From a virus, in the IMG/VR virus record IMGVR_UViG_3300021405_000007, positions 44,107 through 108,106 of that record: a stretch of DNA of 64,000 nt; one strand, given 5' to 3'. The notes under the pieces are model-generated. The model did no database searches, was not told where the DNA came from, and saw only the letters and a list, made by a program, of their open reading frames with translations. The translations under genes were made by a program, and so were the position numbers. Within the stretch, counting starts at the first letter, position 1; the number at the start of each line of letters is the position of its first letter. Of the stretch, positions 7,519 through 62,087 are shown in pieces.

Positions 7519-7545
7519 TCTTCGGTAGATTTTTAAAAAACTTTA
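7519..7545 (-). promoter_or_regulatory. sigma-28/FliA-type promoter TAAAGTTT-N11-ACCGAAGA
   Basis: matches FliA consensus TAAAGTTT-N11-GCCGATAA in spacing and core; upstream of ORF 7481. Confidence 0.7.
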
Positions 7546-7626
7546 GAAAAAAGTTGCATCTTTTGACAATAATCAGTAAACTATAATTAACTCATTGAGG
7601 GTAGTATAGCTAACTCTTCAAGATTC

Positions 7627-7645
7627 TTACCAAATTTGGTAAAAT
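7627..7645 (+). promoter_or_regulatory. 16-bp palindrome TTACCAAATTTGGTAA overlapping extended -10 TGGTAAAAT of the sigma gene
   Basis: perfect palindrome 7627-7642; TGGTAAAAT 7637-7645, 35 nt before ATG 7680. Confidence 0.5.
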
Positions 7646-7679
7646 AATTAAAAAATTTTTATTAAATTTGGATTCAATC

Positions 7680-8870
7680 ATGCAAGATGACTTAGATATC
7701 GTCAACGAGAATGATATTCTTGTTATAGAGACGATAGTTTACAATGACAACTCTTCTTACGCTGAAGACAATTCTTCACCTTCCCTTAAAACCTATATAA
7801 GACAACTATCTAAATTTCCACTTCTTACCCGAGAACAAGAACTTTCGCTCACGAGAAACCTCAAAAAGAACCGTGAGATCCTTTATTCAGCCTTTATGAA
7901 AACCCCAGAATGTCGTCTAGAACTTATGCAAATGCTCAACGCTAAGGTAGGTAGAGCTCGTAGAATGTTTGATCATATAGCAGAAGCTACCGATGACGAT
8001 GAGAAGGTTCTGAATCTTCAAGAAGAGCTAGCCAATGCCATAAAAGATAATAACTTCTCCAAGAAAAATCACAAGAATTTTCAGAACTTAGTTATCCCTT
8101 TTAATGATTTTTATAGACTAGTTAATATTCTAAAAGCAAAAGAACTCACTCCTGAAGTCTCTAAAGCCCTCAATGAATACAACCAAATGAAGAAAAGGTT
8201 GTCAGAGTGTAATCTTCGTTTAGTCTTCGCTAGGGCTAAGAGATTTATGAATAGAGGCATGTCTTTAGAGGATCTTATCCAAGAGGGTAACGTGGGATTA
8301 CTTAAGGCAATTGAGAAGTATAATCCAGAAAAAGGAAACAAATTCAGCACTTATGCTACTTGGTGGATTGATCAAGCTTTTGGCCGCGCTTTAGTGGACA
8401 AAAGTAAACTTGTACGTATCCCTGTACATATGGTTGATTCCATCAATAAAGTCAATAAAGCTTTTCAGACTCTTTCTGAGACTCTGACACATGAACCTAG
8501 CAATGAAGAAATAGCAAAACTTACGGGACTAACTCTAGAGAAAGTTCGAAAAGTCAGAAACTCCATTATTCTAAAAGCTAAGTACCTTCAAGAATTTCAA
8601 AATGATAAAGCTCTTCCTAAAATTATGGATTTTCCCGACGAGTCTAAAAATCCCGAAGAGCAACTCGAAGAGAAAGAATTAAGTGTTAAAGTACGGGAAT
8701 TTTTAGCAACTCTTTCGCCGCAAGAAGAAAAGATTTTAAGACTCAGGTTCGGAATTGGTGAAGCGAGAAGCTATGAAGTACAAGAAATAGCGAACACTGT
8801 AAAATTAACACGTCAAAGAGTTTCTCAAATTCTCAATAAGACTAAGAAATTATGGGAATTTAAGGTATAA
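7680..8870 (+). CDS. rpoD: RNA polymerase sigma-70 factor, RpoD/RpoS-like (regions 1.2, 2, 3, 4)
   Basis: LKTYIRQLSKFPLLTREQE (1.2), NLRLV..AKRF.NRG...DLIQEGNVGLLKAIEKY...KFSTYATWWI (2), RIPVHM (3.0), L..LSPQEEKILRLRFGIG...TRQRVSQI (4); track start is TTG 7668. Confidence 0.93.
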   Translation: MQDDLDIVNENDILVIETIVYNDNSSYAEDNSSPSLKTYIRQLSKFPLLTREQELSLTRNLKKNREILYSAFMKTPECRLELMQMLNAKVGRARRMFDHIAEATDDDEKVLNLQEELANAIKDNNFSKKNHKNFQNLVIPFNDFYRLVNILKAKELTPEVSKALNEYNQMKKRLSECNLRLVFARAKRFMNRGMSLEDLIQEGNVGLLKAIEKYNPEKGNKFSTYATWWIDQAFGRALVDKSKLVRIPVHMVDSINKVNKAFQTLSETLTHEPSNEEIAKLTGLTLEKVRKVRNSIILKAKYLQEFQNDKALPKIMDFPDESKNPEEQLEEKELSVKVREFLATLSPQEEKILRLRFGIGEARSYEVQEIANTVKLTRQRVSQILNKTKKLWEFKV

Positions 8871-8876
8871 TTTAGA

Positions 8877-9641
8877 ATGGCCTCGAATGAAATTACATTC
8901 AAAATTAGTGATGAAATCAAGAAGTTAGGTCAAGACTTAGAAGCCTTAGCACCTAGAATTCGTGATGAGCTAAATGGCATTGTTGGAGATTTAGCAAAAG
9001 CTACCTACAATCAAATAGTGGCAAAAGCTCAAATGGAGCTTCATAGCACCAGATTAGACTACCTTAGAGGTTTACAATTTCAACAAGTTGGCCCTAATGA
9101 CTATATGATAAGTTTGGATGGTTTTTTTGCTAATTCATTAGAAGATGGTCGGCCACCTTATTCTTTGAATGAGGCGCTGCTCAAGTCAGCCAAAGAGGTA
9201 AGCACGGGTAGTAGAGCGGGTGAACCTTGGGTTCGAAAGAACAAACAAGGGAAGCGTTATGCGGCTGTACCATTTGAACAGTCTCAAATGAGAGTAGAAA
9301 TGGGTTTGCCTACTTTGAGAGTTACAAACCCTTTTACCGATAAAAAACAAAAGATAAATCAACTATTTAAAGATTTTGATAAAAATATAATTCAAGGAAA
9401 AGTAGGTAGTTTTAACATCCCTAGTGCACCTAACGAACTGCAAGGATTGACTAAATACCAACACACAAATAAAGAAACCGGCAAAACTAGAAGTACTTAC
9501 GTGACTTTTAGAATGATCAGTGAAAATGGTAAACAATGGACTCACCCCGGTTTTTCTGGACTTCATGCTTTCGAAGAAGCCATGAAAATGGTAGACGTCC
9601 AATTTGAAAAAATGCTAAATGAATTATTTGATAAAATATAA
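8877..9641 (+). CDS. tail completion / neck protein
   Basis: LHSTRLDYLRGL, LEDG..PY, Y.TFR.IS...W.HPG pattern; position; TATAAT at 8866-8871 could give a near-leaderless mRNA. Confidence 0.55.
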   Translation: MASNEITFKISDEIKKLGQDLEALAPRIRDELNGIVGDLAKATYNQIVAKAQMELHSTRLDYLRGLQFQQVGPNDYMISLDGFFANSLEDGRPPYSLNEALLKSAKEVSTGSRAGEPWVRKNKQGKRYAAVPFEQSQMRVEMGLPTLRVTNPFTDKKQKINQLFKDFDKNIIQGKVGSFNIPSAPNELQGLTKYQHTNKETGKTRSTYVTFRMISENGKQWTHPGFSGLHAFEEAMKMVDVQFEKMLNELFDKI

Positions 9642-9650
9642 GGTATTGAT

Positions 9651-10604
9651 ATGGCAATGATAATTCCAGAAATTATTTTACAAAGTATTATCGATGATGG
9701 TTTTACTGATATCAGAAATAACCCTGATACTTTTAGTGATGTTTTCGGTAGTTTAACTCGCGGTTTTGCAACAAGAAGATATGGTAATTCTGAAATTGCA
9801 AAAATTACCAAAATGGTACAAAATACTCAAATTCCAGTAGTTTTTAGCTACGGAATAGTTGAAGCGAATATCCCCTGTATAAGTATCCTTATTAATTCAG
9901 ATTTAGAAGATACTAATCGGTCTGGTATGTCTGACCATCTTGGATTCGCTGATATACCTTTTATAGACCCTTCTCAGTTAGCTGCTTTAGTCTATGCTGG
10001 CCCTTTTCAACCCACTTCCTATAATCCTTTATCCGGTCAAATTGTCATCCCAGACTCAGTAGATTTATCTCAGGTTTATGCCAACCTTTTGTTCGTAGAT
10101 AGCACCGGTACCGAATTCCCAATCTTAGGAGGTATTTCTGACACTGTTGGGAGTAAGCAGATCGTAATAGCCAAACAAGCTACTGTTAGCCTTAATCCCG
10201 GAGCGGTCATAAAATCTTCAATAGACTTTAGTCGAGTTGAAGTTAAAGCCAACACTGAGAATGTTTCTCTAATGGTGGGAGTGCACAGCAAAGACCCTTT
10301 AACCACTAAGTGGTTGTATACACTAGTAAAATACTTTCTTCTTTCTAGAAAAGAATCTTTAATTAAACGTGATTTCAATTTAGCTACTTATTCAGGTTCA
10401 GATTTTGCTAGGGACATGAATTACTCTGGAGATGCCGTTTTTACAAGATTTTTAACTGTTTCCGGCGTCATTCAGAATCAATGGAATTCTGAAAACATCG
10501 ATCTATTTGATAATGTTGAGATTAATCTACAAATTCCAAAAGATGTTTATGATAGCCAACAATTAGGAATAGAAGCCGACGAAACTATAAAAACAATTCT
10601 ATAA
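9651..10604 (+). CDS. tail terminator / neck-tail junction protein
   Basis: IPCISI motif, position just upstream of the sheath. Confidence 0.5.
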   Translation: MAMIIPEIILQSIIDDGFTDIRNNPDTFSDVFGSLTRGFATRRYGNSEIAKITKMVQNTQIPVVFSYGIVEANIPCISILINSDLEDTNRSGMSDHLGFADIPFIDPSQLAALVYAGPFQPTSYNPLSGQIVIPDSVDLSQVYANLLFVDSTGTEFPILGGISDTVGSKQIVIAKQATVSLNPGAVIKSSIDFSRVEVKANTENVSLMVGVHSKDPLTTKWLYTLVKYFLLSRKESLIKRDFNLATYSGSDFARDMNYSGDAVFTRFLTVSGVIQNQWNSENIDLFDNVEINLQIPKDVYDSQQLGIEADETIKTIL

Positions 10605-10614
10605 GACACGGGCA

Positions 10615-10623
10615 TGATATAAT
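10615..10623 (+). promoter_or_regulatory. extended -10 box TGATATAAT
   Basis: 51 nt upstream of 10674, head of the sheath operon. Confidence 0.5.
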
Positions 10624-10919: not shown

Positions 10920-10936
10920 ATTAAGGTATCAACAAA

Positions 10937-13084
10937 ATGGCTATTAAAACAAATTTCGGTGGAAGCACTATTTATCATCCAGGTGCTTATTCAAAATCGA
11001 TCACCAACCCAACTCCCGGCTCTAATGTTGTATCAACCGATACCCTATTTCTTATTGGTGAGGCCTCTGGTGGCCAACCAGGTTCAAGCGCTGGTATAGT
11101 GTTTTACCCAGCTTCAGCTGCTTCCCAAATTCAATCTATTTATCAATCCGGCCCTATTGTAGACGCAATCATGAATTGTTTAGCTCCCCTGAAACTATCA
11201 GGCGGTGGTGGTCCGGGTTTAATTGGTATATATAAAACCAACGCATCTGTGCAAGCATCTCTATCATTAGCTAGTTCTTACGCTACCTTAAAAGCTTTAG
11301 ATTACGGCGTAAATGGAAACAGGATCACTGCTAAAATTATTGTTTCTGCAGAAGTATCTCCAGCAGTAACTGGTTCAGCAGCAGTAACTAACTTTGGTGG
11401 TTTAAACACTGAAACTTTAGTAATTAGAACAAATGGTGCAGCTTCAGTCACAGTTACATTCTCTTCTCCTGCAAGTATTGCTGATGTGATTTCTCAAATC
11501 AATTCTCAAGACACCCAAGTAACAGCGAGTCAAGTTGGTGGAATTCTTACGATTACCAAAAATACATCGGCTAATCATAATAGGGATGGTTTTGGTTCTA
11601 CTATTGAAATTGTTAGCGGTTCTGCCTTAGGCCTTTTGTTTCTAACAGCTGGTCAATTTGGAGTAGCCGCTTCAGAACAAACCGCAACCGTAACCTTAGC
11701 AAGTTCTGCTATTAATGTAACTGAAACTGATGTAGAAGGCGGAGCAATCGCTCTATCTATCGGTAGAACTAATGCTAGTTCTTGTACAGCTGCAACAGTT
11801 CAAGTCAGTTCAACTAGTTTGGTGCTTACCGCAACGGGTTCAACTTCTTATAACTTTACCTTAAGCCAATACCCTTTAATTAAAGATTTAGTAGCAGCTA
11901 TTAATAACGTAGCTGGAGGTTGGTCTGTAACTGCTAATGCAACCTTACAAAGTCTACCGTCATCAGCACTTGATGAAATGACCATTGGAGCATTTTCTGA
12001 AGCTGGTAACCAACCTGCTAGGATTAAAATTGATGCTTATTCAATGTCTCACGCTTTTGATTCATCCCAATTAGTTTCTATTGCCATGACTGCAGTAGCT
12101 GGTTTACCAGACCAACTTTCTCCTGCTGCTAGTTTAGCTGGTGGATTGTTGGGTGCAAGCGCTTCTTCTGACTTCGAAAATGCTTTAACTTTATCTTTAT
12201 CCGAAGACGTAAATGTTATCGTTCCTTTAATTAGCCAAGATGCTTCGGCTGACATCAGTATGGGTGTAACTGACTCTAGTTCTACTTACGATGTAGAAGC
12301 TGTTCAAGCAGCCCTTTCTTCTAACTTGGCATTACGCGGCAATATTAAAAATCGTCGCGAAGCTCAAGGGGTTGTAGGATACAGAGTTAATACTGCAGCT
12401 GCTATGTATGCCCAAGCAGCTTTGTTAGCCGATTCCAATACTCAATTAGTTGGACAGGATGTTTTAGTAGTAGATTCAACTGGTAATCTAAATTATAAAC
12501 AACCACACATCTTAGCTGCAATGATTGCAGGTGCTCGTTTAGGTGTTGATATCGGTGAACCTTTAACTTACAAATTCATTGCAGTTTCAGCAGTGGGTCA
12601 TTTTGTTAATCCATCTACTGGTGTTTCTGGTGGTGATTTCAACCCAGTAATCGATGGTGATGCAGCTATCCAAGCCGGGGTTACTTATTTGGAACCAGCT
12701 CAAGGAGCTTTCCGAATAGCAGTAGACAATACTACTTACGGTGCAGATGCTAATTTTGTTTACAATCGTGGTTCAGTGGTACAAGCTGCTCAATACATTG
12801 CTAAAACGATCCGTAATGATGCTGAACTTACTTTCGTAGGTAAGAAAACTTCAATCGTTGATGCTAATGCCATTAAATCAAGAATTTCAACAATATTACG
12901 TCAATTATTAGTAGCTCAAATTATAGTCCCTTCAACTGGTTATCCTTTGGGTTATAATACTGACACTTTTACCGTACAAGTTGTTGGAAACACAGCTAGC
13001 GTTCAACTCGAAGTATTCCCAGTACTTGGCCTCGACTTTGTGCTGATTACTTTTACGTTATCGGAAGCTACTTCTAACGCTTAA
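10937..13084 (+). CDS. tail sheath protein
   Basis: N-term FGG.TIYHPGAYS, LIGEASGG.P, A.DYG..GN.I, C-term GEPLTYK...GVTYLE...DNTTY...FVG...V.PV..LDFV.ITF. Confidence 0.9.
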   Translation: MAIKTNFGGSTIYHPGAYSKSITNPTPGSNVVSTDTLFLIGEASGGQPGSSAGIVFYPASAASQIQSIYQSGPIVDAIMNCLAPLKLSGGGGPGLIGIYKTNASVQASLSLASSYATLKALDYGVNGNRITAKIIVSAEVSPAVTGSAAVTNFGGLNTETLVIRTNGAASVTVTFSSPASIADVISQINSQDTQVTASQVGGILTITKNTSANHNRDGFGSTIEIVSGSALGLLFLTAGQFGVAASEQTATVTLASSAINVTETDVEGGAIALSIGRTNASSCTAATVQVSSTSLVLTATGSTSYNFTLSQYPLIKDLVAAINNVAGGWSVTANATLQSLPSSALDEMTIGAFSEAGNQPARIKIDAYSMSHAFDSSQLVSIAMTAVAGLPDQLSPAASLAGGLLGASASSDFENALTLSLSEDVNVIVPLISQDASADISMGVTDSSSTYDVEAVQAALSSNLALRGNIKNRREAQGVVGYRVNTAAAMYAQAALLADSNTQLVGQDVLVVDSTGNLNYKQPHILAAMIAGARLGVDIGEPLTYKFIAVSAVGHFVNPSTGVSGGDFNPVIDGDAAIQAGVTYLEPAQGAFRIAVDNTTYGADANFVYNRGSVVQAAQYIAKTIRNDAELTFVGKKTSIVDANAIKSRISTILRQLLVAQIIVPSTGYPLGYNTDTFTVQVVGNTASVQLEVFPVLGLDFVLITFTLSEATSNA

Positions 13085-22373: not shown

Positions 22374-23363
22374 TCATTTTAATCCTATCTCCTTTAAACG
22401 TTCTTCTAAGAACTCTCTTGCAGTATATCTCTCCGAAAGAATAAAGTCACTAGGAGGATGAAAGAAAAAGGGTATTGAATAGCGACTATGTTCTTCACCC
22501 CACCTAGTATTAATAACTCTATGAGTAGTGCTTTTAAGTGCGCCTCCAGTCAATTCCTGCAGCATATCTCCAATATTCACAATTATCAACCTGCTTGAAG
22601 TAGGCGCACTTATCCAAGAACCATCCGAAGCCTTTATTTGCAGTCCAGTTGATCGAGAAGCTGGAAGTAAGGTGAGTAGATTGATATCCTCATGTTCAGC
22701 TGCTCGCATACCTATAGGATTAGCCCCAGTTGGAGGATAGTGTAGCACTCTTAATAAAGAGTTATTTTTTGTAGTGTCTTTAGCAATTTTTGAAAGTTGG
22801 GGTAACTTCAAGTCTTTGGCTATAACATTGATCAATATACCACCTAACTCGTCTAAAGCATTATAAGCTAGAGCGAAATTGGATAAATGGAAGGGGGATA
22901 CTAAGGAATGCGGAATATGCAAAAACTCCTTTAAATCAGGAATAGTTTGATCTTTAGCTTTTTCAGTTTTAAAGGGGGTATAGCCTATTTGACCATTTGT
23001 TTCTGGATAATGAAAAATCATTTTAAATTGAAGAGCTTGAGCAAAAAAATGTTCAGCAGCATCTTTAGCTGCATGCAAGTGATATGTTTTAAAATTGGCA
23101 AGCCAATCAATAGGGTTAATAGCAGCAAAACCAATAGTTTTAAAGGCTTGCAATAATTCTTGAGGGCTAGTTACCACAGGAATGGTTTTTGTGGTAAGGT
23201 TGTTACAATGCTCAATATAAGCTTCAGTCTGTCTTTCTTCGATTAATTTTAAAACTTTCAATAAAGTTGAAACTTCCACAATATTTGTTGGACTCGTAGA
23301 TTGTGAATAAGTAGCCATTTGTTTTTGTAATTCGGCCAAAATTCTATTTTTTAGAATTTCCAT
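22374..23363 (-). CDS. 2-oxoglutarate/Fe(II) dioxygenase, isopenicillin-N-synthase (PcbC)-like
   Basis: LRVLHYPP, HED (HxD), IVNIGDMLQ, STTHRV, RYSIPFF (RxS); GGAGG RBS gives start 23363. Confidence 0.88.
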   Translation of the reverse strand: MEILKNRILAELQKQMATYSQSTSPTNIVEVSTLLKVLKLIEERQTEAYIEHCNNLTTKTIPVVTSPQELLQAFKTIGFAAINPIDWLANFKTYHLHAAKDAAEHFFAQALQFKMIFHYPETNGQIGYTPFKTEKAKDQTIPDLKEFLHIPHSLVSPFHLSNFALAYNALDELGGILINVIAKDLKLPQLSKIAKDTTKNNSLLRVLHYPPTGANPIGMRAAEHEDINLLTLLPASRSTGLQIKASDGSWISAPTSSRLIIVNIGDMLQELTGGALKSTTHRVINTRWGEEHSRYSIPFFFHPPSDFILSERYTAREFLEERLKEIGLK

Positions 23364-23383
23364 AATTTTTACCTCCAAATAAC

Positions 23384-23421: not shown

Positions 23422-24126
23422 TTAAATATTCCAATTATTGGCTTTCAAAGCAGAAATTGCTATAGGACATACATTAGCCTTTTCAACTGCTTCAAGCATC
23501 AATTCAGCCACTTTTCTAATTTCTGGTTGAGCGTGCTCAGAATTACGTAACTTTTGGTAATTTGCAAAAGATCTTAAATTAAAGATGGTTACACGTTCAG
23601 TCATATTATTTTGAGGCAAAACCCCTCGGAAAAACTCTCTACAGCGTTTATATTCTTTATTTGTAATGATTTTGTGTTCTTCGCACCCTTTAAACTCCTT
23701 AAGAATTAAACTATAGAAAAGGTTAGTTTTTTTGCACAATTCCTTGTAAGTCTCGGTAATTTCTCCAGAAATGGAGTTGTCAGCTCTACTCATAATCTCT
23801 TTAATGTCGTCAGGTATATTCAGCCATTCACTAGGCATTGTACGATACCGACCAGACATTCCGTTATGGGAACCTATTCTGTGAGTCATGTGCTGGCGGT
23901 CAGTTTGAATAGGCATTTTTATCCAAAACCTAAGAACCACGGATTCAATGGGAGAAGCATGTTTTTGATCGATTAGTAATTTGACAATTCTTTCTACGTC
24001 TAAGTCTGTCTTTGAATTTTTTGATGAAAGGGTGTTGGAGGAAGTCCAAGCTGCCTCGGCAATGGCACGATCAGAGCCCATCCAATCTTGGAGTTCTACT
24101 TGAATTTGATTATTGTTTACGGTCAT
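23422..24126 (-). CDS. thyX: flavin-dependent thymidylate synthase
   Basis: H.SP.E, RQ.MTHR..S.N..SGRY, R.VLP, N.RS..N..KLR...HAQ.EIR. Confidence 0.92.
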   Translation of the reverse strand: MTVNNNQIQVELQDWMGSDRAIAEAAWTSSNTLSSKNSKTDLDVERIVKLLIDQKHASPIESVVLRFWIKMPIQTDRQHMTHRIGSHNGMSGRYRTMPSEWLNIPDDIKEIMSRADNSISGEITETYKELCKKTNLFYSLILKEFKGCEEHKIITNKEYKRCREFFRGVLPQNNMTERVTIFNLRSFANYQKLRNSEHAQPEIRKVAELMLEAVEKANVCPIAISALKANNWNI

Positions 24127-25065: not shown

Positions 25066-25272
25066 TTACTTCTTTTTTTCTAAATTTGAAGGAAAATTGA
25101 CCAAGGAAGCACCAAGAATAAGCGCAACCGCATAACTTGATAGTGCAGTAATCATAAAGCTATAAATCAATTTATCTTTCATTTTCATATTTCTTAGCCT
25201 CCATAAATACCTCTTCGGCATTTTTAAGGAAAACTTTAGCTCCAAATTATCGGAGGAGAACGACCCTCCCAA
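25066..25272 (-). CDS. small membrane protein
   Basis: ORF track; true start likely ~25188 (MKMKDKLIY) after GGAGG. Confidence 0.45.
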   Translation of the reverse strand: MGGSFSSDNLELKFSLKMPKRYLWRLRNMKMKDKLIYSFMITALSSYAVALILGASLVNFPSNLEKKK

Positions 25273-27198: not shown

Positions 27199-27207
27199 AT
27201 TTTATCA
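27199..27207 (-). promoter_or_regulatory. extended -10 box TGATAAAAT upstream of nrdJ
   Basis: 55 nt upstream of GTG 27144. Confidence 0.4.
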
Positions 27208-28822: not shown

Positions 28823-29230
28823 TTATAAGTACTGACCTCTTCGTCCAGTAAATGACCAAGAACCTATCCAAAAGCCCCTAGAATCAACACTTCCAGTACC
28901 AGCTCTAAACTTAACCCCAGAAATCTCATATTTTGGGGTATTGTCTGTATTATCATAAATAGTAACCAGCATCTCAGGTTGCAAAAGAATATCTGAAACA
29001 TTATCTGAATCTAGACCAAAATCAGCCAATGCTTGTTGGTTAGTCTTTAATACTCCTATGGTAACGCTAATTCGATGCCCATTTTCAGCATACTCAGCCA
29101 CTTCTAAATCATCGAGTTGTGGGATTTCTTCTAATTTATTTTCTTGAGTTACTTGAACATTTGTAGCCCAAAGAATGGGTTGGTGATCGATGGTTATAGT
29201 CGCTTTAGCACCAGTAAATACAGTACTCAT
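28823..29230 (-). CDS. tail tube paralog (second tube or tube-initiator protein)
   Basis: VFTGAKATITID...L..LE..E.AE.GH...I.D....G.KF..G.G...SR....G.W.FT aligns end to end with 13650..14090. Confidence 0.75.
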   Translation of the reverse strand: MSTVFTGAKATITIDHQPILWATNVQVTQENKLEEIPQLDDLEVAEYAENGHRISVTIGVLKTNQQALADFGLDSDNVSDILLQPEMLVTIYDNTDNTPKYEISGVKFRAGTGSVDSRGFWIGSWSFTGRRGQYL

Positions 29231-29232: not shown

Positions 29233-29394
29233 TTATCTCTTTTTAAAAAAATTAATAAAATCAAAAACTTGAAAAGTTGCACTAATTAAAAAACCTATCC
29301 ATAAAGGTGCGATCAAAAATAGTTGTGCATTTGAGAATAAAATTAATCCAAAACCAAATAAAAAAGCAAAAGCGCCACTCTCATATTTTTTCAT
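29233..29394 (-). CDS. 53-aa two-TM membrane protein (not in track)
   Basis: MKKYESGAFAFLFGFGLILF...; ATGA overlap with 29391..29840. Confidence 0.5.
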   Translation of the reverse strand: MKKYESGAFAFLFGFGLILFSNAQLFLIAPLWIGFLISATFQVFDFINFFKKR

Positions 29395-29840
29395 TTCTTA
29401 ACCTCGTATTTGGATTTTTCTCTAGACCAATCCCCAGTAGCATTACAAGATGTACAAAATGACCAAAGCATTTGACCGGTATCGGCCCACGTATGATTAC
29501 AAAATCTATTCCCGGGTTCAGCGTGCTCTATAGTAGGGAATCTCTCGTTGGGACTGATCAGCAATCTTCTGTAAGCTGAGAAACTTTGATTACTTATCGC
29601 TGCATGGGTATATTCATGATCTACTATGATATAGTTTTGGGTATCTATAGATAGTTGTTTTATTTTCCCGAATAGATCTTTATAATAAATCACTAACATA
29701 TCGAGTCCAACTGAAGGATCATATTCGATTCTAAGTTCATCGATAATAAAGTCTTCCCACATGGAATAACCATAAGGATTAGTTCTCAACCAGCGATAAT
29801 TCTCATTGATTTTCAGATCTATTAGATCACGAACCACCAT
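29391..29840 (-). CDS. hypothetical protein with C-terminal CxH...CxxC
   Basis: GGAGG RBS; FCNHTW...FCTSC. Confidence 0.6.
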   Translation of the reverse strand: MVVRDLIDLKINENYRWLRTNPYGYSMWEDFIIDELRIEYDPSVGLDMLVIYYKDLFGKIKQLSIDTQNYIIVDHEYTHAAISNQSFSAYRRLLISPNERFPTIEHAEPGNRFCNHTWADTGQMLWSFCTSCNATGDWSREKSKYEVKK

Positions 29841-29873: not shown

Positions 29874-29901
29874 TTATCGGGGTTTGCACTAAAAACCTTT
29901 A
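29874..29901 (-). promoter_or_regulatory. sigma-28-type promoter TAAAGGTT-N12-CCCGATAA
   Basis: near-consensus boxes, 1 nt longer spacer; upstream of ORF 29840. Confidence 0.65.
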
Positions 29902-30393: not shown

Positions 30394-30768
30394 ATGGCTG
30401 ATAAAGATCCTTTTATAGCACTGAAGATGATAGCTTATAGTCGATCTCAACTTCCGCCTAGAGAAGAGGATAGAACTGCTGCTATATTTGTGGACTATGC
30501 TAGACATCAAATTTGTAAGATTAAGAACTTACTTTTCAATGATCCTAAGTGGGAATTGTACACTGCAGAAGAAATTTTAATAGAATTTTTTTGTCTAACA
30601 TTTGATGAAAACGAACAAGCAAGAGAAGCTTTTTTAGCTAAACTACGCGGTGTGGAAGCAGATGATATAAAATGGCTAGAATTGATGAAAACAAAATATG
30701 AAAATGATAAAAAAGAAGAAATAGAGAAAATAAGTAACGGTAAGCCAGAATTTGAGGATACTTTCTAG
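30394..30768 (+). CDS. tail assembly chaperone (second)
   Basis: NDPKW..YT.EEILIEF; immediately before the tape measure. Confidence 0.55.
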   Translation: MADKDPFIALKMIAYSRSQLPPREEDRTAAIFVDYARHQICKIKNLLFNDPKWELYTAEEILIEFFCLTFDENEQAREAFLAKLRGVEADDIKWLELMKTKYENDKKEEIEKISNGKPEFEDTF

Positions 30769-36445: not shown

Positions 36446-36454
36446 TGTTAAAAT
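36446..36454 (+). promoter_or_regulatory. extended -10 box TGTTAAAAT
   Basis: 40 nt upstream of 36494. Confidence 0.55.
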
Positions 36455-50967: not shown

Positions 50968-51177
50968 CTACTCAAAGTTAAAACCCAAATCCCTCATCCA
51001 CTTGGTGGGAGCCTTAAGTCCCACCACTGCATAAACATCTGTAAATAACGACAAAACTTCTTGATCGGTATATTTTGGGACGTTTGACTGTACTTGCAAG
51101 CCATATGCCAAAAATTTGTCTTTATATACTGGTATTTGCGCTTCTTGTTCTGGGGTTAGGGTTTCTAAAACTGTCAT
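50968..51177 (-). CDS. short protein resembling the N-terminus of DUF6745-type phage proteins
   Basis: LTPEQEAQIPVYKDKFLAYGL; AAGGA RBS; follows a sigma-28-type promoter. Confidence 0.5.
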   Translation of the reverse strand: MTVLETLTPEQEAQIPVYKDKFLAYGLQVQSNVPKYTDQEVLSLFTDVYAVVGLKAPTKWMRDLGFNFE

Positions 51178-51220: not shown

Positions 51221-51247
51221 CTATCGGCATATTTATGAAAAACTTTA
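51221..51247 (-). promoter_or_regulatory. sigma-28/FliA-type promoter TAAAGTTT-N11-GCCGATAG
   Basis: 15/16 match to the FliA consensus with exact spacing. Confidence 0.8.
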
Positions 51248-52270: not shown

Positions 52271-52882
52271 TTATACTTTGATGTTTAGTATTCTATCTAT
52301 AAGTCCCATAAATCCTATATTTTTATATTTATTATGTTCTTTTTTAATTTCTTCTCTTGATAAGGCCATTAGTCTTCCCCCATATCTGGAATTATTGGCG
52401 GCTCGCCAAACTTCATATTCATCCTCACTTATAGTCCAAATAGTTCTATTGCCATTTATACTTATCTCATTTCTACCTTCAAACCTCTCTGTTATTTCTT
52501 TATCACATAGATATTCGTCTCCAAATACTTCTGCATTTCCATGAATTTTAGAATTTCCAAATATTCTACTTCCTTTATGAATTTGGGCATTACCATAAAT
52601 CTTAGCATTGCCATAAATTTCAGCATCACGACATACGATAGCATCACCAAATACTTGAGCGTTCTCATATACCCTCCCTTGCGGGAATACCCAAGCATCT
52701 CCTTCTTGAGAGAGATTCGTTTCTTGTTCAATATATCCACCCTTTTCTCCTATTTCTACTGTAAATTTCTTTTCTTTTTCCGGACTAAATGGGTATTTAA
52801 ATTCTCTTATAGCAACTATTCGATATAGGGTACGTCCTTCTATTCTAACTAAGTCTGTTTTATCTAATTTATACTTATTCAT
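52271..52882 (-). CDS. left-handed beta-helix (hexapeptide repeat) phage protein
   Basis: LYRI.A...GEKGGYIE.E.NLSQEG.AWV, then xYGNAx repeats. Confidence 0.8.
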   Translation of the reverse strand: MNKYKLDKTDLVRIEGRTLYRIVAIREFKYPFSPEKEKKFTVEIGEKGGYIEQETNLSQEGDAWVFPQGRVYENAQVFGDAIVCRDAEIYGNAKIYGNAQIHKGSRIFGNSKIHGNAEVFGDEYLCDKEITERFEGRNEISINGNRTIWTISEDEYEVWRAANNSRYGGRLMALSREEIKKEHNKYKNIGFMGLIDRILNIKV

Positions 52883-52990: not shown

Positions 52991-53017
52991 TTAACGGCTA
53001 TTCTAAGAAAAACTTTA
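52991..53017 (-). promoter_or_regulatory. sigma-28-type promoter TAAAGTTT-N11-GCCGTTAA
   Basis: 15/16 match, exact spacing. Confidence 0.75.
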
Positions 53018-55161: not shown

Positions 55162-55581
55162 TCATTTTCCAGTACTTCCAAAACCGCCAATTCTTTCTTT
55201 ATTTTTTACTTCTATCGTGGTATTTTGGCAAACTATTTTTGTCTCACCTTGAGCTATTCTATCCCCAACATTAAACTTGAAGGATTCAGTTTTATGGTGA
55301 TTAATGAGGATAACTTTAATTTCCCCCTTGTAATCTTCATCTATGGTGGCTGGACTATTCAATATGGTCACGCCATGAAAAAGTGCTAAACTACTTCGAG
55401 GCCTTAAATTTAAATATTCATTTAAGGAACCCTCGGCACCAGTTTCCAAGTATAGACCTGTACTGATTGCTTTCCACTCACCAGGATGTATTACGCCCGA
55501 CTCATTAGCTGCTATATCAAAACAAGCAGCATTAATAGTTTGATAGGCAAGTTCATTATTAGATTTATTTATAATTTTCAT
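55162..55581 (-). CDS. dut: dUTPase (trimeric)
   Basis: A.FDI, PRSS, TID.DY.GEI, GDRIAQ, R.GGFGSTG. Confidence 0.93.
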   Translation of the reverse strand: MKIINKSNNELAYQTINAACFDIAANESGVIHPGEWKAISTGLYLETGAEGSLNEYLNLRPRSSLALFHGVTILNSPATIDEDYKGEIKVILINHHKTESFKFNVGDRIAQGETKIVCQNTTIEVKNKERIGGFGSTGK

Positions 55582-55843: not shown

Positions 55844-56263
55844 TTAATCAACAAATTCAATAATATCTTGAGGTTTAGTTAAGGAATTATAATCAAATTG
55901 TCCACTATAAGTATAACTATATATTTGGGTTCTTATTGGATATATACTATCCTTCATGAAATGGATTATCATAGATATATCTCCATTTCTAAGTCTCACC
56001 TTCCTACCTACATCATTCTCAGTAATTAGAATGACTGACTCTTCATATTCTGCTACTAGATCGAAGATAGATTGTTCTAAATAAGAACAAAATTTTCCAT
56101 CAATACTATAGTCTTCTGGTACGGCGGTCCCATTGGCATAAACTATTGTACAGGCTGCTTGTCCATCTCCTTCCACTCTAATTTCTCTAATAGCCTCTAC
56201 TTTAACATACTTAGTATTAGGTGTGTTTCTACATACATATTTCTTACCTACTTCTAGTTTCAT
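55844..56263 (-). CDS. hypothetical protein, family A copy 1
   Basis: paralog of 54160..54564; AGGAG RBS. Confidence 0.65.
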   Translation of the reverse strand: MKLEVGKKYVCRNTPNTKYVKVEAIREIRVEGDGQAACTIVYANGTAVPEDYSIDGKFCSYLEQSIFDLVAEYEESVILITENDVGRKVRLRNGDISMIIHFMKDSIYPIRTQIYSYTYSGQFDYNSLTKPQDIIEFVD

Positions 56264-56273: not shown

Positions 56274-56621
56274 CTAATTTTTATCGTTCCAAAAGTCTTC
56301 TATTTGTTTATCGGCTAAATCTTTACTTTTCTTTAGTCCATTTTCTTGTTTTTTCAATTTCTTTAAAAGACTATCGATATCGGAGAGGTTTTTGTTCAAC
56401 TGTTTATTTTTTTCAGTAAGATCCTGAATTCTTTGATCAATAGCAGAACTATCTGTTTCTACTTTTTGAACATCGATTTTAACTTGTAAAGTCGCTATTT
56501 TATGCTCCTCGTAAGTTATATAATAACATAAAAATCCTATTATAAATATAAAAGCGATGGTGGTTTTGGTGTGAATTGATAGGATTATCTGTTTTAAAAT
56601 TTCAAATTTTTCAATATTCAT
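56274..56621 (-). CDS. TM plus coiled-coil protein, i-spanin-like
   Basis: N-proximal TM, long coiled coil; start moved to 56621. Confidence 0.45.
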   Translation of the reverse strand: MNIEKFEILKQIILSIHTKTTIAFIFIIGFLCYYITYEEHKIATLQVKIDVQKVETDSSAIDQRIQDLTEKNKQLNKNLSDIDSLLKKLKKQENGLKKSKDLADKQIEDFWNDKN

Positions 56622-57073
56622 AATGTTCCCCCTACGATCGCAGAAGCTGCAGTGTGTCCTACGATCCAAACAACTCCAACCCCACTTATGAGTGCCACTC
56701 CAATACCGGCAGCAAAAAATATAGCATCCCTAGTAGTTCTTGAAGACTCTTCATTTTCATATTTAGTGGTATATTTTTCAGCGGTAGTTTGCCATTCTTT
56801 GCTTTTTTGTTTTTCGGCAGCTAGAGCTACTCCATAATCTTTAATTTCTGAAGCTTGATCTAATGATTTTGATATCTGTAGGTTAATCTCTTTAAATTTT
56901 AAATCCAACTCTTCTTTATTATAACGAACCTCAGACTCTTTTTCTTTGCTAAAAAGAAAGCCATCGCAAGGTGCCACAATCCCCTGCTTCAACACTGTTA
57001 CTGGTTTAACACAGTCTTTTGCCCATAAACTAGGGGTTATTAAAAGTGTAAGTAAAATCAGTATTTTTTTCAT
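56618..57073 (-). CDS. exported coiled-coil protein with C-terminal TM (spanin-like)
   Basis: Sec signal, G..AP.DG.L motif, coiled coil, C-terminal hydrophobic helix. Confidence 0.45.
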   Translation of the reverse strand: MKKILILLTLLITPSLWAKDCVKPVTVLKQGIVAPCDGFLFSKEKESEVRYNKEELDLKFKEINLQISKSLDQASEIKDYGVALAAEKQKSKEWQTTAEKYTTKYENEESSRTTRDAIFFAAGIGVALISGVGVVWIVGHTAASAIVGGTL

Positions 57074-58452
57074 TTCAGAGATCCTTTTTCTGTAAACTTA
57101 AGTATAATAATACCTATGATACTCAATCCTACTGAAATAATCAAACTCCAAACTAATAAAAGGCCTAAATTTTCATAATGGCCTCTTGGAACTACAAAAA
57201 TATGATTCAGAAACTTTGTTATTATAGAACTTAGCATTAAGGCGGCATTCATAAGGGAGGCTGTTAGGGCGAAGTAAGTAACCTTCCCTTCTTCGGGAGC
57301 ATTCAAAGCCACAATTATACCTAAAGGGATCATGGCTATTTGAGCTAGAGCATCAACTCCAGCAGAATCTAATAAAATTAAATGTTTAGCAGAGATTCCG
57401 AAATTATAACCATAGTAGATCATTAAATCGGGTAAAGATAAAATGAGTAATCCGAGTGTTGTCCAAACTAGAATTTTTATTAATTTTTCTTTTTTAACTA
57501 GAAAATTTCTAAATAAAACCATTGAGAGAATTGAAGCAGCGTATCCTATAGTAGAAAGAGTCCCTAAAAAGGCCGCATCAAAGTGCCAAATGTCCATATA
57601 ATACCAGGTGGCTGCAATACCAGCACTAGGATTGGTTCGGAATAGAAATAAGGCAAGCATTGTTATAAAAAAACCTAGTTTGTGGCTGTTTTCTAAATGC
57701 GGGACTTTTTTATATAATAAATAAGAGAATAACAGAACACTCATTAAAAAAACTAGTATTTGAGACCAAACATCGGAGAGAAATAATCCAAGGATGGTAG
57801 AAATCAAAAGAAACAAGACTCCTATCCCTATTAAAGATTTATCAGAAGCCTCATTTGATTTTTTGTAAGTATTTGAAATTGAGATTATTAATATTACTAA
57901 AGGGCTTATGGTACTCAGCATGAATATTGTTGCAATACTAAAATAAGAGGCCAATATACCAGAGATTGCAGCTCCAACCAACCCACCAGCAATCATCAAA
58001 TTTCTACTATAAAGTTGGAAGCTTGCCTTTTCTTGTTCATCAATAGCATTTTCGACTATTAAAACATCAAATAAAAGTCTAGTGATTACTACTGAAATTG
58101 TTCCAAAAAGATTGGTAAGTAATAAAGTTGTATACTCCCCTAAATGTATGAATAGCCAAGAATTTGGGAGAGCCGATTCAGCCATCCCTAGGGATGCTGC
58201 TATACCTAGAATACTCGCTAGAACTAAATAACTCTTGCGTTGATTGCCTATAATTGGCACAGCGTCTATGACTGAAGAAAAGAGTATTTTGGCGCTCCAA
58301 GGTAAACTAGTCCAAATCCCAATAGAGATCAATTGTTCTATGGATAAATGAACCATATTTTTATTGAAGAGGGCAGAGGCTACATTGGTTAAAGCAGTAA
58401 TACCTAAAAAAAAGTAAGAAAGAAGGATAAAAAAATTATTTACTTTTTTCAT
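57070..58452 (-). CDS. BT1-family folate/biopterin transporter (MFS)
   Basis: LPWSAKILF..VIDAVPI.G..RKSYL, ~12 TM, P.EG...YFAL.AS..N. Confidence 0.8.
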   Translation of the reverse strand: MKKVNNFFILLSYFFLGITALTNVASALFNKNMVHLSIEQLISIGIWTSLPWSAKILFSSVIDAVPIIGNQRKSYLVLASILGIAASLGMAESALPNSWLFIHLGEYTTLLLTNLFGTISVVITRLLFDVLIVENAIDEQEKASFQLYSRNLMIAGGLVGAAISGILASYFSIATIFMLSTISPLVILIISISNTYKKSNEASDKSLIGIGVLFLLISTILGLFLSDVWSQILVFLMSVLLFSYLLYKKVPHLENSHKLGFFITMLALFLFRTNPSAGIAATWYYMDIWHFDAAFLGTLSTIGYAASILSMVLFRNFLVKKEKLIKILVWTTLGLLILSLPDLMIYYGYNFGISAKHLILLDSAGVDALAQIAMIPLGIIVALNAPEEGKVTYFALTASLMNAALMLSSIITKFLNHIFVVPRGHYENLGLLLVWSLIISVGLSIIGIIILKFTEKGSLK

Positions 58453-58705: not shown

Positions 58706-59205
58706 ATATTTTTCTTCTTAAAGATCGAGCATTTAGGATCATCGCTATATCTATTATTGAATAATTCATAAAGATAGCATTCTTTGTGAGCTTCGTATTG
58801 CCATTCGGAGATTCCTTGAAAATTCATAATACTCTTAGGCAATGGGTATGCATGTTCCGGATCCCAATCTTCATAGGTCAATTCATTGTTATGCTCAAGT
58901 CGGCCTAAAAACTCATGGCCACATTCATGAAAAACTAATAAACGTCTAGTATTACTATCATATTTGTCCCACCAATAAGTATTAACTCTTATAAAGGGTT
59001 TAAAAGGGTTAGGAATAGAATAACCATCATACTTGTAATTCGCAAAGGTAGTCTTGGCTGCAGTTAATTCAACATCATCGACTTCGATGTTGAATTTTTT
59101 AGCTTCAGTTTTAAAATCTTGGATGTATGGTTCAATTTCAGGATCTACGGAGCGGCATTGTGAAAGAGAAAATAAACTCAATAATAGTAAAAACTTATAA
59201 ATCAT
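58702..59205 (-). CDS. lipoprotein zinc metallopeptidase
   Basis: lipobox LSQ-C; LVFHECGH..L.R.EH; SIMN Met-turn. Confidence 0.75.
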   Translation of the reverse strand: MIYKFLLLLSLFSLSQCRSVDPEIEPYIQDFKTEAKKFNIEVDDVELTAAKTTFANYKYDGYSIPNPFKPFIRVNTYWWDKYDSNTRRLLVFHECGHEFLGRLEHNNELTYEDWDPEHAYPLPKSIMNFQGISEWQYEAHKECYLYELFNNRYSDDPKCSIFKKKNI

Positions 59206-59217
59206 CGTAACTCCATT

Positions 59218-59733
59218 TTAAGGCTTTTCTGACTTAAAATAATTTTCATCTAACCATTTATAGAAAGCCTCTCTTGAGCCTAATTTATTTAACTTCTCAT
59301 GTAAAGCTTTTGAACTGATTCCATGAAGTTTTAGTTCTCCATGAGGGCCATCTTCTAATGATTCCCAGTGCCACCCAGCCACTAAACCCACAGATTCTAG
59401 AATCTTAGCCAGCTCTTCCCACTTACTCTTAGGAACCTTCCAAGTCCATCTACCATCCTTATCTTTAAAAACAAAATCAGTGGCTAACCCCAGAACATGA
59501 TAGGAGTATATAGTTTCACTGTAGTGTCTCTTTACTAGAAGTTTTTGTCTTTTAAGGGAGCGAACTGTTTCATATACTCCTAAATTTAAGCCTTTTTCTT
59601 TTGAAATCTTTAACACTTCCAAAACTTTGGCTTGCATTCGAGGATGCAATAGGCTGATATCCGAATTGGTATCTAGATCAGAGGCCATCAGTATACTTGA
59701 TTGAAAAAATAGTAAAAAAAGAATGAACTTCAT
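59218..59733 (-). CDS. M15-family peptidoglycan peptidase (L-Ala-D-Glu type) with signal peptide
   Basis: LHP, ET.RS..RQ, SYH..GLA.D, W..EDGPH.EL; start moved to MKFILFLLFF at 59733. Confidence 0.85.
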   Translation of the reverse strand: MKFILFLLFFQSSILMASDLDTNSDISLLHPRMQAKVLEVLKISKEKGLNLGVYETVRSLKRQKLLVKRHYSETIYSYHVLGLATDFVFKDKDGRWTWKVPKSKWEELAKILESVGLVAGWHWESLEDGPHGELKLHGISSKALHEKLNKLGSREAFYKWLDENYFKSEKP

Positions 59734-59762
59734 GTAGACCTTTCCAAGGAAAAGGGAACCAT

Positions 59763-60284
59763 CTATCCACGTTCTACAACTCTCCCAACCTTCCACCCTT
59801 CCATTGTTTCTATTCCTTTGATAAGAGCTTCAAATTCTGTTTCAGAAAAAGTACTGATTTTCTTATTGGAATAAACTTTGGTTCTTTTCTGCAGGAAACT
59901 TAAATAGTTTTTGGTGATATTTTCTGAAGGTGGAGCATATTGATAGATCATAACCTTCAAAGAAACATTACCATATTTTTCACTCACACAGGCTACTAGA
60001 GCCTTTCGACCTAGTTCTACATCTGAGAATATAAGAAAGCCTCCTGAAGAGCCTACAACCCCTTCATAGGCCTTTGAATTGCCATTGCTACGTAGATTAC
60101 CTGGATTGTTATTTCTCCAAGACTTAGAGCCGTTAATTTTTATGATTTTCTTTCCAGAAGAGGTTTTATAAACTGTAGTTCTAATCAAATTTGAGTAAGA
60201 CTTGACTACTGTATAGTCTTCAGCATAACCTTGTGAAGTTATTAATATTTGTAATAAAGTCATTAATATTAGTAAGTATTTCAA
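59763..60284 (-). CDS. exported RNNNPGN-family putative lysozyme-like protein
   Basis: signal peptide; WRNNNPGNL, F..F....G..A, YAPPSEN.T..Y, I...EG. Confidence 0.65.
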   Translation of the reverse strand: MKYLLILMTLLQILITSQGYAEDYTVVKSYSNLIRTTVYKTSSGKKIIKINGSKSWRNNNPGNLRSNGNSKAYEGVVGSSGGFLIFSDVELGRKALVACVSEKYGNVSLKVMIYQYAPPSENITKNYLSFLQKRTKVYSNKKISTFSETEFEALIKGIETMEGWKVGRVVERG

Positions 60285-60288
60285 TAGT

Positions 60289-60447
60289 TTACTCTCTATT
60301 CATATGTTTATATTTAAGTTTATCTTTAAGATCTCTAAGTTTCTTATTCATTCTTTCCCTCTTAGAGAAGACTAGCATAATCTTATCTTCATAGGAAATG
60401 AAAAGGAGTATAAAGAAAACTATTATAGTTATTACTAAGCTTTGCAT
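60289..60447 (-). CDS. 52-aa single-TM protein with basic tail (not in track)
   Basis: GGAGG RBS; MQSLVITIIVFFILLFISY...KLRDLKDKLKYKHMNRE*. Confidence 0.55.
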   Translation of the reverse strand: MQSLVITIIVFFILLFISYEDKIMLVFSKRERMNKKLRDLKDKLKYKHMNRE

Positions 60448-60467
60448 AATCAATACCTCCATAATAC

Positions 60468-60494
60468 TCTTCGGTCTAATAATATAGAACTTTA
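60468..60494 (-). promoter_or_regulatory. sigma-28-type promoter TAAAGTTC-N11-ACCGAAGA
   Basis: exact spacing; same -10 as the 7519 site; heads the long minus-strand operon. Confidence 0.7.
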
Positions 60495-60497
60495 ATA

Positions 60498-60958
60498 ATC
60501 TTATAACCCTTTAATCTTTCTAGATAAACCCCACCCCTTTGGGCTCTACATCTTAGATGTTTTCCCAATTATAAGATCTCTTTATTCTTACTGACTTAGT
60601 ACTAAAGGTATCTAGGATTTATGAAACTCTTATTGCTAAGAGGATGTTTTCGACCTAGAACAGAGAATCTAACAAAGAACTGTTCAATAATACTAAGCTT
60701 ATCTAAAGAATATTTTCTATGGAAACGATGAGGTTCAGAGGGGAGTGTTTGGGTGGTATTAGTTAGATTAAACACTATTCATCTTCTTTCTTAAGGGAGA
60801 TAACTCTTATTGCTCATCATCACAATACTTATCTCAATCATTACAAAGAGATATTAGCCTTACCGGTCGGAGTAATCCGATTTGCAATCCTCTTGTTTTA
60901 AGTCTAAGGGAACTGAACCAACGACTCTGAATAAAAGAGTAGCATGAATAATAGAAAA
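60498..60958 (+). ncRNA. candidate large structured non-coding RNA (family unassigned)
   Basis: ORF-free; at least 14 mutually compatible helices, GTAA tetraloop, G-U pairs favour the + strand. Confidence 0.55.
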
Positions 60959-60962
60959 GTGT

Positions 60963-60989
60963 TAAAGTTTTTTTGTGTGGTGCCGAAAA
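60963..60989 (+). promoter_or_regulatory. sigma-28-type promoter TAAAGTTT-N11-GCCGAAAA
   Basis: 15/16 match, exact spacing, followed by GGAGG and ATG 61010. Confidence 0.8.
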
Positions 60990-61009
60990 GATTAATGGAG
61001 GGTAAAACT

Positions 61010-61183
61010 ATGATAGTTTTAATAAGTGTTATTCTCGGTGTATTTGGTGGTTATCAAATAGGTTATGAGGATGGTAAAGATAAGCCTCGAACTCATGTGG
61101 AACAACATGAACTTCAAGTTCATTGCCCCCAAATTCATACCAAAGCAGATAGAAACCCACCCTTAAATTGCACCAAGGAATAA
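61010..61183 (+). CDS. small membrane-anchored protein
   Basis: GGAGG RBS; start moved from 60944. Confidence 0.6.
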   Translation: MIVLISVILGVFGGYQIGYEDGKDKPRTHVEQHELQVHCPQIHTKADRNPPLNCTKE

Positions 61184-61186
61184 AAA

Positions 61187-61453
61187 ATGAAACGTAAAGA
61201 GGTTATGAGTAAACTTAAAGAAATTGATAACCTTCTAACTCAAACCCAAGAAATTAATAAAAAAGTTCAAGAGTTAAAGAAAGAAATGGGTTCAAAAGAA
61301 CAAGCTGCTTCCAGTCTTGAATTTGGCCATAATGGACGTGCTGCAGTAGGGATAGATGGATTACTACATGTTCAAGTAGTCCTTTCTTCAGATGAAGAAA
61401 TTAAAGCTTTGATCAATTACCTGACTGAAAATCTTGAAGGAGGATTAGAATGA
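61187..61453 (+). CDS. hypothetical coiled-coil protein
   Basis: AAGGA RBS. Confidence 0.6.
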   Translation: MKRKEVMSKLKEIDNLLTQTQEINKKVQELKKEMGSKEQAASSLEFGHNGRAAVGIDGLLHVQVVLSSDEEIKALINYLTENLEGGLE

Positions 61454-61659
61454 GTGGAATTGAATTGCTACTAGCAATAGTATGTGGTTACTTTTTAGGC
61501 CACGTAGTTGGTTATTATAGAGGTTATGATCACTCTAGAAAAGATATGGAGAGGATTATTTATGCTATCGAAGAAGGTTCTAATAGAAAAGATGCGGAAA
61601 AACTTTATGTTGATTTACAAAAATCTTCTGGAGACAGTTCAGGGGAAAAACCAGCCTGA
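61450..61659 (+). CDS. small membrane-anchored protein
   Basis: GGAGG RBS, ATGA overlap. Confidence 0.55.
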   Translation: MSGIELLLAIVCGYFLGHVVGYYRGYDHSRKDMERIIYAIEEGSNRKDAEKLYVDLQKSSGDSSGEKPA

Positions 61660-61870
61660 AATAGAAAATACTAGTGTCTCTAGATTAAAAGATTGGATTG
61701 ATCGGAGTTCGAAAGAATCTAAGTCAAAAGAGGAAAAGCTTAGAATTAAAGATATCAAGAAGTTGATTAAAGTAGTAGAAGAAGTAAAAAATATGCTGGA
61801 AAGGCATGATTTATTTTATCCAGATTTTGAACTAGTTTTAGCATTAGAATCTTTGGAGGAAGAAGCATGA
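61508..61870 (+). CDS. hypothetical protein (true start probably near 61607)
   Basis: ORF track; overlaps the previous gene. Confidence 0.45.
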   Translation: MVIIEVMITLEKIWRGLFMLSKKVLIEKMRKNFMLIYKNLLETVQGKNQPEIENTSVSRLKDWIDRSSKESKSKEEKLRIKDIKKLIKVVEEVKNMLERHDLFYPDFELVLALESLEEEA

Positions 61871-61918
61871 TAATATATATTTTATCTGTTATAACAGTGA
61901 TAGGTTTTTTTGTTTGTT

Positions 61919-62002
61919 ACTCTTCTAGATACTCATGAATAATTTTACCTGACGCATCCTTTTGTTTGACTAAAATTAATACTTGCTCATCCTTAGCTAT
62001 TT
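61919..62002. repeat. 84-bp exact direct repeat, copy 1 (outside the helicase)
   Basis: identical to 62837..62920 inside the helicase gene. Confidence 0.95.
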
Positions 62003-62059
62003 TTTAGCCATTTTTATCCCAATAATCTCGCCATTTTACAAAAAAATCACATTTCTGCC

Positions 62060-62087
62060 TAAAGCATAACCAAAAATATGCCGTATA
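62060..62087 (+). promoter_or_regulatory. sigma-28-type promoter TAAAGCAT-N12-GCCGTATA
   Basis: TAAAG and GCCG cores, spacer 1 nt long; upstream of ORF 62145. Confidence 0.55.

Follow-up and report, generated by a model that had tools for sequence, protein, structure and literature searches.

Textbook phages begin transcription with the housekeeping sigma factor of the host and then switch to factors of their own. Which sigma factor serves the accessory operons of a phage is the question raised by the stretch of viral DNA presented here, a window of 64,000 nucleotides (nt) that corresponds to bases 44107-108106 of the IMG/VR virus record IMGVR_UViG_3300021405_000007, a contig of 108,106 bp with 36% G+C. 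A two-box motif recurs upstream of these operons, and the original prediction, made from the sequence, held that they are driven by promoters of the flagellar sigma-28 (FliA) type. In what follows G000 denotes the whole 108-kb genome, class 1 the sigma-28-type promoters, and class 2 promoters with an extended -10 element and no -35 box. G000 is compared with G001, a 38-kb fragment, with G002, a 108.9-kb relative with terminal repeats that is 56% identical to G000 over 6343 core residues, and with other family members found with a head-protein profile. The contig ends in 126 nt that duplicate positions 3-128; the assembly thus closes on itself, and its gene inventory is taken as complete. Judged from both boxes and their spacing, the class-1 sites are promoters of the sigma-28 (FliA/SigD/WhiG) class, and it is fairly probable that host RNA polymerase reads them with the flagellar sigma-28 of the host itself.

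Sigma-28-type promoters before accessory operons

The consensus of 25 strong sites from G000, G001 and G002 is cTAAAGTTT-N11/12-(A/G)CCGATAA-g, with TAAAGTTT as the -35 octamer and a CCG that is invariant in 25/25 sites (2.4 bits per position). The base following the -10 octamer is G or A in all but one of the 25; sigma-70 needs a T at position -7. Among the ten strong sites of G000, the -35 octamer is TAAAGTT(T/C) in eight and TAAAGGTT in two, and the spacer is 11 nt long in seven and 12 nt in three, a split that is alike in G002 and G001. Both octamers, the 11-nt spacing and the invariant CCGA core recur in the class 3 flagellar and chemotaxis promoters that FliA reads in Escherichia coli and Salmonella. 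The phage sites differ in that they lie on a lytic-type myovirus genome and drive orphan and auxiliary genes rather than flagellar ones; about 40% of them have a 12-nt spacer. The published sigma-28 consensus is TAAAGTTT-n11-GCCGATAA (PMC2859248).

When a matrix trained on the phage sites alone was run over 45 kb of E. coli K-12, the four best hits lay at tar (24.2), fliD (18.7), fliC (18.0) and motA (17.5), all classic FliA-dependent promoters. Because the matrix ranks known FliA promoters first, the phage sites are as good as the best sigma-28 promoters of a bacterial host. Together with the consensus match, this cross-detection bears out the view that the motif is a true sigma-28-type promoter class placed before accessory operons.

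Genome-wide, the motif stands far above shuffled sequence, as the original prediction would have it. In the 108-kb genome, a two-box matrix finds ten sites scoring 20.4-24.2, the next best site reaching 15.8, and first-order shuffles yield 0.05 sites at the score level of the ten. The matrix was trained on these same ten sites, and the independent test is provided by the relatives, in which sites scoring at least 18 number 11 in G002 (0.13 expected from shuffles) and 4 in G001 (0.03 expected). For the loose pattern TAAAG-N15/16-CCG the window has 14 matches where 2.9 are expected, a count reached in 0 of 100 shuffles, and an unbiased dyad search of upstream regions returned AAAG...CCGA/CGAT as the top signal in G000 and G002 alike.

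All ten strong sites of G000 are non-coding and point toward the next gene. Three overlap crude calls of open reading frames (ORFs), which are over-extended starts or a spurious ORF. A downstream ORF can be identified for nine of the ten, and the distance from the -10 box to a start supported by a ribosome-binding site (RBS) is 20-108 nt, close to the 20-110 nt first given. The seven sites originally listed (7545-, 29901-, 51247-, 53017-, 60494-, 60963+ and 62060+) agree with their description in sequence, strand and spacing, and plus-strand structural genes are indeed not preceded by such sites but by extended -10 promoters. Two sites that had been proposed as weaker members were rejected: 23411- (TCCAAAGA) is doubtful for want of the CCG core, and 27236+ has a -10 box alone, with no -35 box and a score of 2.7. 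Outside the window, the genome carries strong sites at positions 114+, 35454+ and 36029+, with weaker ones at 5768+ and 42794+. The site at window position 62060, listed in the table with the other features, is a plausible promoter but falls below the clear class.

A look-alike, TAAAGATT-N12-TCCGATAA at 516-543 on the plus strand, was rejected; its -10 box is one arm of a 13-bp hairpin (AAACTCCGATAAG/CTTATCGGAGTTT) followed by a T-run, and this hairpin, within 516..575 (+), is the probable terminator of the gene at 83-505. A separate observation concerns three sites of G002 (90956+, 94174- and 94594-, locus L017) and one of G001 (20368-, L020), whose spacers are nearly identical (agctagcaat), as is the sequence downstream (GTAATATGTAAG); this resemblance suggests either duplication of a promoter cassette or a conserved initial transcribed region.

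In G000, none of the nine first genes behind class-1 sites has a homologue in the six relatives compared, the orphan share of all G000 genes being 48%. First genes are orphans in 8 of 11 cases in G002, where two of the three exceptions encode BT1 and Nramp transporters. Class-1 units also hold genes for ThyX, a 2OG-Fe(II) oxygenase, dUTPase, an M15 peptidase and BT1, and the orphan first genes together with this auxiliary content make "accessory operons" a fair description. The site at genome position 114 stands at the head of the GroEL/replication module, where G002 has a counterpart. Small orphan genes clustered together under many promoters are characteristic of early regions, and early timing of the class-1 units is plausible from their content of such genes.

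Two membrane transporters are encoded in the genome, one of the BT1 folate-biopterin family (window 57070-58452, minus strand) and an Nramp metal transporter (genome 40270-41529; L023:270-1529). Both are confined to the subclade of G000, G001 and G002, and in G002 each immediately follows a sigma-28-type promoter. Among 5.8 billion proteins, BT1 has no more than three close homologues (51-54% identity), and a protein identical to it is also encoded on a 202-kb contig. A GIY-YIG/HNH-type homing endonuclease gene (genome 5768-6672, L021), absent from all relatives, has TAAAGAAA-N12-GCCGATAA upstream and seems to be a mobile gene that carries or uses a sigma-28-type promoter.

Extended -10 promoters before core genes

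Core genes, among them those for replication, head, tail, baseplate, sigma and ribonucleotide reductase, carry an extended -10 element of the form TGnTAnAAT (TGTTAAAAT, TGTTATAAT or TGATATAAT) and no recognisable -35 box. The pattern TGnTAnAnT occurs 23 times in upstream regions against 5.7 expected and is enriched upstream of genes in 7/7 family genomes examined. In the accessory arm (48-64 kb), sigma-70 sites of the canonical -35/-10 type show no enrichment (42 against 59.6 expected). Class 2 resembles the -35-independent extended -10 promoters of sigma-70/sigma-A (TGnTATAAT) and is found before core genes family-wide, but it differs in being the companion class to sigma-28-type sites, and its reader in infected cells could be host sigma-A or the phage sigma. 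Because relatives that lack a sigma gene also carry class 2 (G006, 17 against 3.0 expected; G004, 8 against 1.6), the host housekeeping sigma can read it; the RpoD-like sigma of the phage probably reads it as well.

The claim that the programme is keyed to the motility sigma rather than the housekeeping sigma finds partial support. It is fairly probable for the accessory units, but a transcription wholly dependent on sigma-28 finds no support: core genes, including the phage sigma gene itself, have housekeeping-type extended -10 promoters. In G003 the promoter before GroEL consists of TTGACC and an extended -10; the family comparison at the head of the GroEL module is partial, gene order differing there.

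Two further observations bear on class 2. An extended -10 sub-variant, GCGTG(C/A)TA(T/A)A, at genome positions 30543, 33066 and 40225 (L022, L023) is found upstream of three genes (the major head gene, the Nramp gene and the gene at 30612) and may denote a late class that is very strong or under separate regulation. Within this one phage family, complete genomes with an RpoD-like sigma (G003, G009; L069-L080) and without one (G004, G006; L081-L093) all use the extended -10.

Promoters and associated genes in the window (window coordinates; leader in nt; aa, amino acids)
Feature	Position	Strand	Sequence	Score	Leader	Genes assigned to the site and remarks
Class 1	7519..7545	-	TAAAGTTT-N11-ACCGAAGA	22.3	37	7314-7481 and 7076-7249, both orphans; first ORF of 55 aa lacks homologues in six relatives; back to back with the phage sigma gene; G002 counterpart at 99113+ in the same divergent position
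Class 1	25212..25238	-	TAAAGTTT-N11-GCCGAAGA	23.4	23	Missed in the original prediction; unit extends to about 20652 (-) with ThyX 23422-24126 and 2OG-Fe(II) oxygenase 22374-23378 (Pfam Thy1, 2OG-FeII_Oxy)
Class 1	29874..29901	-	TAAAGGTT-N12-CCCGATAA	21.4	33	29391-29840, 29233-29394 and 28823-29230; first gene orphan; diverges from baseplate/tail module
Class 1	51221..51247	-	TAAAGTTT-N11-GCCGATAG	23.4	43	Orphan 50968-51177
Class 1	52991..53017	-	TAAAGTTT-N11-GCCGTTAA	21.5	108	52271-52882 and small genes to about 51269
Class 1	60468..60494	-	TAAAGTTC-N11-ACCGAAGA	20.4	20	Long accessory operon to about 53779 with M15 peptidase 59218-59796, BT1 57070-58452 and dUTPase 55162-55581 (Pfam)
Class 1	60963..60989	+	TAAAGTTT-N11-GCCGAAAA	23.7	20	First ORF 57 aa; small orphan genes to about 61870
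Weak, class-1-like	62060..62087	+	TAAAGCAT-N12-GCCGTATA	9.4		Upstream of gene ending 62390
Possible internal class 1	56308..56335	-	TAAAGAAA-N12-GCCGATAA	11.5		Perfect -10, partial -35; 45 nt before 55844-56263
Class 2	36446..36454	+	TGTTAAAAT			No -35
Class 2, other starts	46, 1046, 10615, 29947, 43768, 48485, 53035, 53094	+				
Class 2	27199-27207	-				Before ribonucleotide reductase gene
Class 2	7637-7645	+	TGGTAAAAT			Before sigma gene
Sigma gene, RpoD/SigA-like	7680..8870	+				Only sigma gene of the phage; regions 1.2, 2, 3 and 4
Tail sheath gene	10937-13084					

The factor that reads class 1

A sigma-28 encoded by the phage itself, the exception that the original prediction allowed for, is not found: the single sigma gene of the closed genome is RpoD-like. 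Its product scores above the cut-off for Pfam Sigma70_r1_2, r2, r3 and r4 and shares 40-45% identity with solved RpoD/SigA chains across regions 2-4. The FliA_WhiG model gives it 112.3 bits, below the cut-off of 189.6, whereas the RpoD models give 220-240 bits, the best among named sigma models. In an alignment with E. coli RpoD, E. coli FliA and eleven phage homologues, the relevant segments are KFSTYATWWIDQAFGR, PVHMVD and the -35 helix TRQRVSQI. The protein keeps the sigma-70 signature KFSTYATWWI-Q and PVHM, at which FliA differs, and retains W433/W434, Q437 and H455 (RpoD positions), where FliA has Q/R, G and S.

The recognition helix of region 4 behaves differently. The canonical helix TRERIRQIE, present in G003 and L005, is replaced by TRQRVSQI(L) in G000, by SKERVQQR in G001 and by TRENVRQR in G002, and all three of these phages share the TAAAGTTT box. 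Because the helix varies while the box does not, the phage sigma is a poor candidate for the reader of class 1; the variable helix fits a sigma that would rely on extended -10 promoters.

The distribution of the motif within the family points the same way. It is enriched in G000, G001 and G002 only, and neither in the sigma-bearing relatives G003, G007, G009 and G014 nor in the sigma-less G004 and G006. Set against the core-gene tree, ((G000,G002),(G003,G009)),G004,G006, this pattern indicates that the sigma gene is older than the motif and is not sufficient for it.

Unrelated phages extend the comparison. The exact 16-base consensus occurs in more than 119 stretches of viral contigs, and strong sites are clustered in several of them (10 in 5 kb of L209, 10 in L224, 7 in L191 and 6 in L196). 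Two such phages are complete, with pattern matches numbering 13 in G229 (87.6 kb, with terminal repeats; control 2) and 7 in G231 (43.4 kb; control 0). These motif-rich phages share few genes with G000, and in profile searches, which a very divergent sigma would escape, G229 and G231 gave no Sigma70_r2 or FliA_WhiG match even at permissive thresholds. Because G229 and G231 have no detectable sigma, a host factor is the simplest reader there, and the same is likely in G000. Sigma residues, family distribution and sigma-less phages thus all favour a host factor as the reader, as originally proposed. As an observation in its own right, dense sigma-28-type arrays, with up to ten sites in 5 kb on one strand, are seen in the IMG/VR stretches L209, L224, L191/L220, L196 and L256 (G227-G231). 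Cultured relatives of two other motif-rich phages were sought, and nothing useful was found.

It is unlikely, in our estimation, that the RpoD-like sigma in its G000/G001/G002 variant has acquired sigma-28-like specificity and reads class 1, leaving the extended -10 to host sigma-A. The helix residues RVSQ of G000 match E. coli FliA at four positions, yet that same helix is not conserved among the three phages despite their invariant TAAAGTTT box. A class-1 site stands back to back with the sigma gene in G000 and G002, but class-1 sites do not carry the -7 T. The motif and the divergent region 4 do occur in the same subclade; however, the residues of region 2.4-3.0 that contact the -10 and extended -10 are sigma-70-like and the same as in L005 and in G003, which is motif-negative, and phages without a detectable sigma gene bear the same set of promoters.

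Slightly less probable still is an unrecognised factor specific to the subclade, either a sigma of very divergent sequence or an appropriator by which host sigma-A is redirected, which would direct polymerase to the motif. Phage sigmas such as T4 gp55 and SPO1 gp28 are hard to detect by profile, and about half of the genes are orphan or clade-specific without a detectable domain. However, tar, fliD, fliC and motA head the E. coli hits, and an unrelated factor would agree with the host consensus in both octamers by an unlikely coincidence; no sigma-like protein was found among the clade-specific proteins with Pfam hits; and the motif is also present in unrelated phage lineages that have few genes in common with G000. 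It is very improbable that the sites are not promoters but operators of a DNA-binding regulator or a short repeat spread with gene cassettes, as the three G002 sites with nearly identical spacers and downstream sequence might suggest, because spacers are otherwise unrelated while boxes and spacing do not vary, each of the nine strong sites for which a downstream ORF can be identified faces it at 20-108 nt from an RBS-supported start, and the matrix recovers four known E. coli FliA promoters.

The host's own sigma-28 is accordingly the reader we favour, and several points weigh against it. That the host has FliA and flagella is an assumption. The start sites and the timing of class-1 units are predicted from sequence. 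The motif is restricted to the subclade in which region 4 of the phage sigma is divergent, so that a functional link between the two is possible, and a specificity factor could hide among the many clade-specific or orphan proteins that have no recognisable domain. Finally, that G229 and G231 lack a sigma is a result of profile searches, which are blind to a very divergent sigma.

If host sigma-28 is the reader, TAAAGTTT-N11/12-(G/A)CCGATAA would be bound by holoenzyme containing free sigma-28, and transcription would begin a few bases beyond it, covering about eight units in the window and about 12 genome-wide that consist of variable lineage-specific cassettes and auxiliary genes. Core genes would be transcribed from extended -10 promoters by host sigma-A and later, probably, by the RpoD-like sigma of the phage. 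Expression of the cassettes would then need a host with active sigma-28, that is, a flagellated cell from which FlgM has been exported. The activation of sigma-28 after export of FlgM is established for enterobacteria. No gene for a FlgM-like anti-sigma was found in G000, G001 or G002.

The phage, its host and the meaning of class 1

The phage is a myovirus with sheath, head and replication genes, the left arm of the genome encoding the major head protein, DNA polymerase, primase-helicase and GroEL. No cultured phage is close to G000: megablast of 20 kb against cultured phages gave no match, and the nearest cultured tail sheath, that of Myxococcus phage Mx1, is 29% identical. Two features of the core modules may be recorded here. 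A 903-aa ORF in the head/neck module (window 3126-5837, plus strand) has no PHROG match, and relatives match a short stretch of it only; and the phage GroEL (genome 1149-2774, locus L021) is found family-wide with 49-58% identity among relatives.

The suggestion that the host belongs to the Bdellovibrionota finds no real support. The regulon of attack-phase Bdellovibrio bacteriovorus is akin to the phage system in using a sigma-28-type promoter well beyond flagellar genes, as a global programme, but it is chromosomal, not phage-borne, and its consensus, TTAAG-N16-CCGATA in 92/140 promoters (PMC3627812), has TTAAG at -35 where the phage has TAAAG. BT1 of the phage was not matched in any of 201 genomes from the phylum to which a Bdellovibrionales metagenome-assembled genome belongs, and its Atlas neighbours are scattered over several phyla. 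The one hint is that Nramp matches this metagenome-assembled genome best, by a small margin over near-equal matches (53-58% identity) in many phyla. Compared with bacterial GroELs from eleven genomes of diverse phyla, the phage GroEL reaches only 32-37% identity, and a GroEL scan of bacterial genomes for a host found nothing. There are no tRNA genes in the phage to serve as a clue, and a metagenome scan for a host link likewise found nothing.

Programmes built on phage-encoded sigma factors are those of SPO1 (gp28 and gp33/34), T4 (gp55) and phiEco32 (gp36). G000 is like these phages in having two promoter classes that separate sets of genes and a sigma gene of its own. In SPO1, T4 and phiEco32, however, the phage sigma reads a special class that exists in the phage alone, whereas in G000 the special class is the consensus of a host alternative sigma and the phage sigma is housekeeping-like. 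A literature search for phage promoters read by host sigma-28 found no report, which does not prove absence. Class 1 is thus a known promoter class in a new role.

With somewhat less than even confidence, we propose that use of the flagellar sigma of the host is a widespread and undescribed strategy of several unrelated lineages of uncultured tailed phages, whether or not they have a sigma of their own, and that early or accessory cassettes fire only in motile cells that have exported FlgM, for example cells reached via the flagellum. If this is true, phage gene expression would be tied to the physiological state of the host, flagellated and with FlgM exported, and state-dependent outcomes of infection could be explained. 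The sigma-28 consensus is conserved across bacteria, and the motif would provide a marker, readable from sequence, for phages of motile hosts. The division between the two promoter classes also provides a rule for annotation, with sigma-28 promoters before variable cargo and extended -10 promoters before the conserved core, by which recently acquired cassettes in uncultured phages may be flagged.

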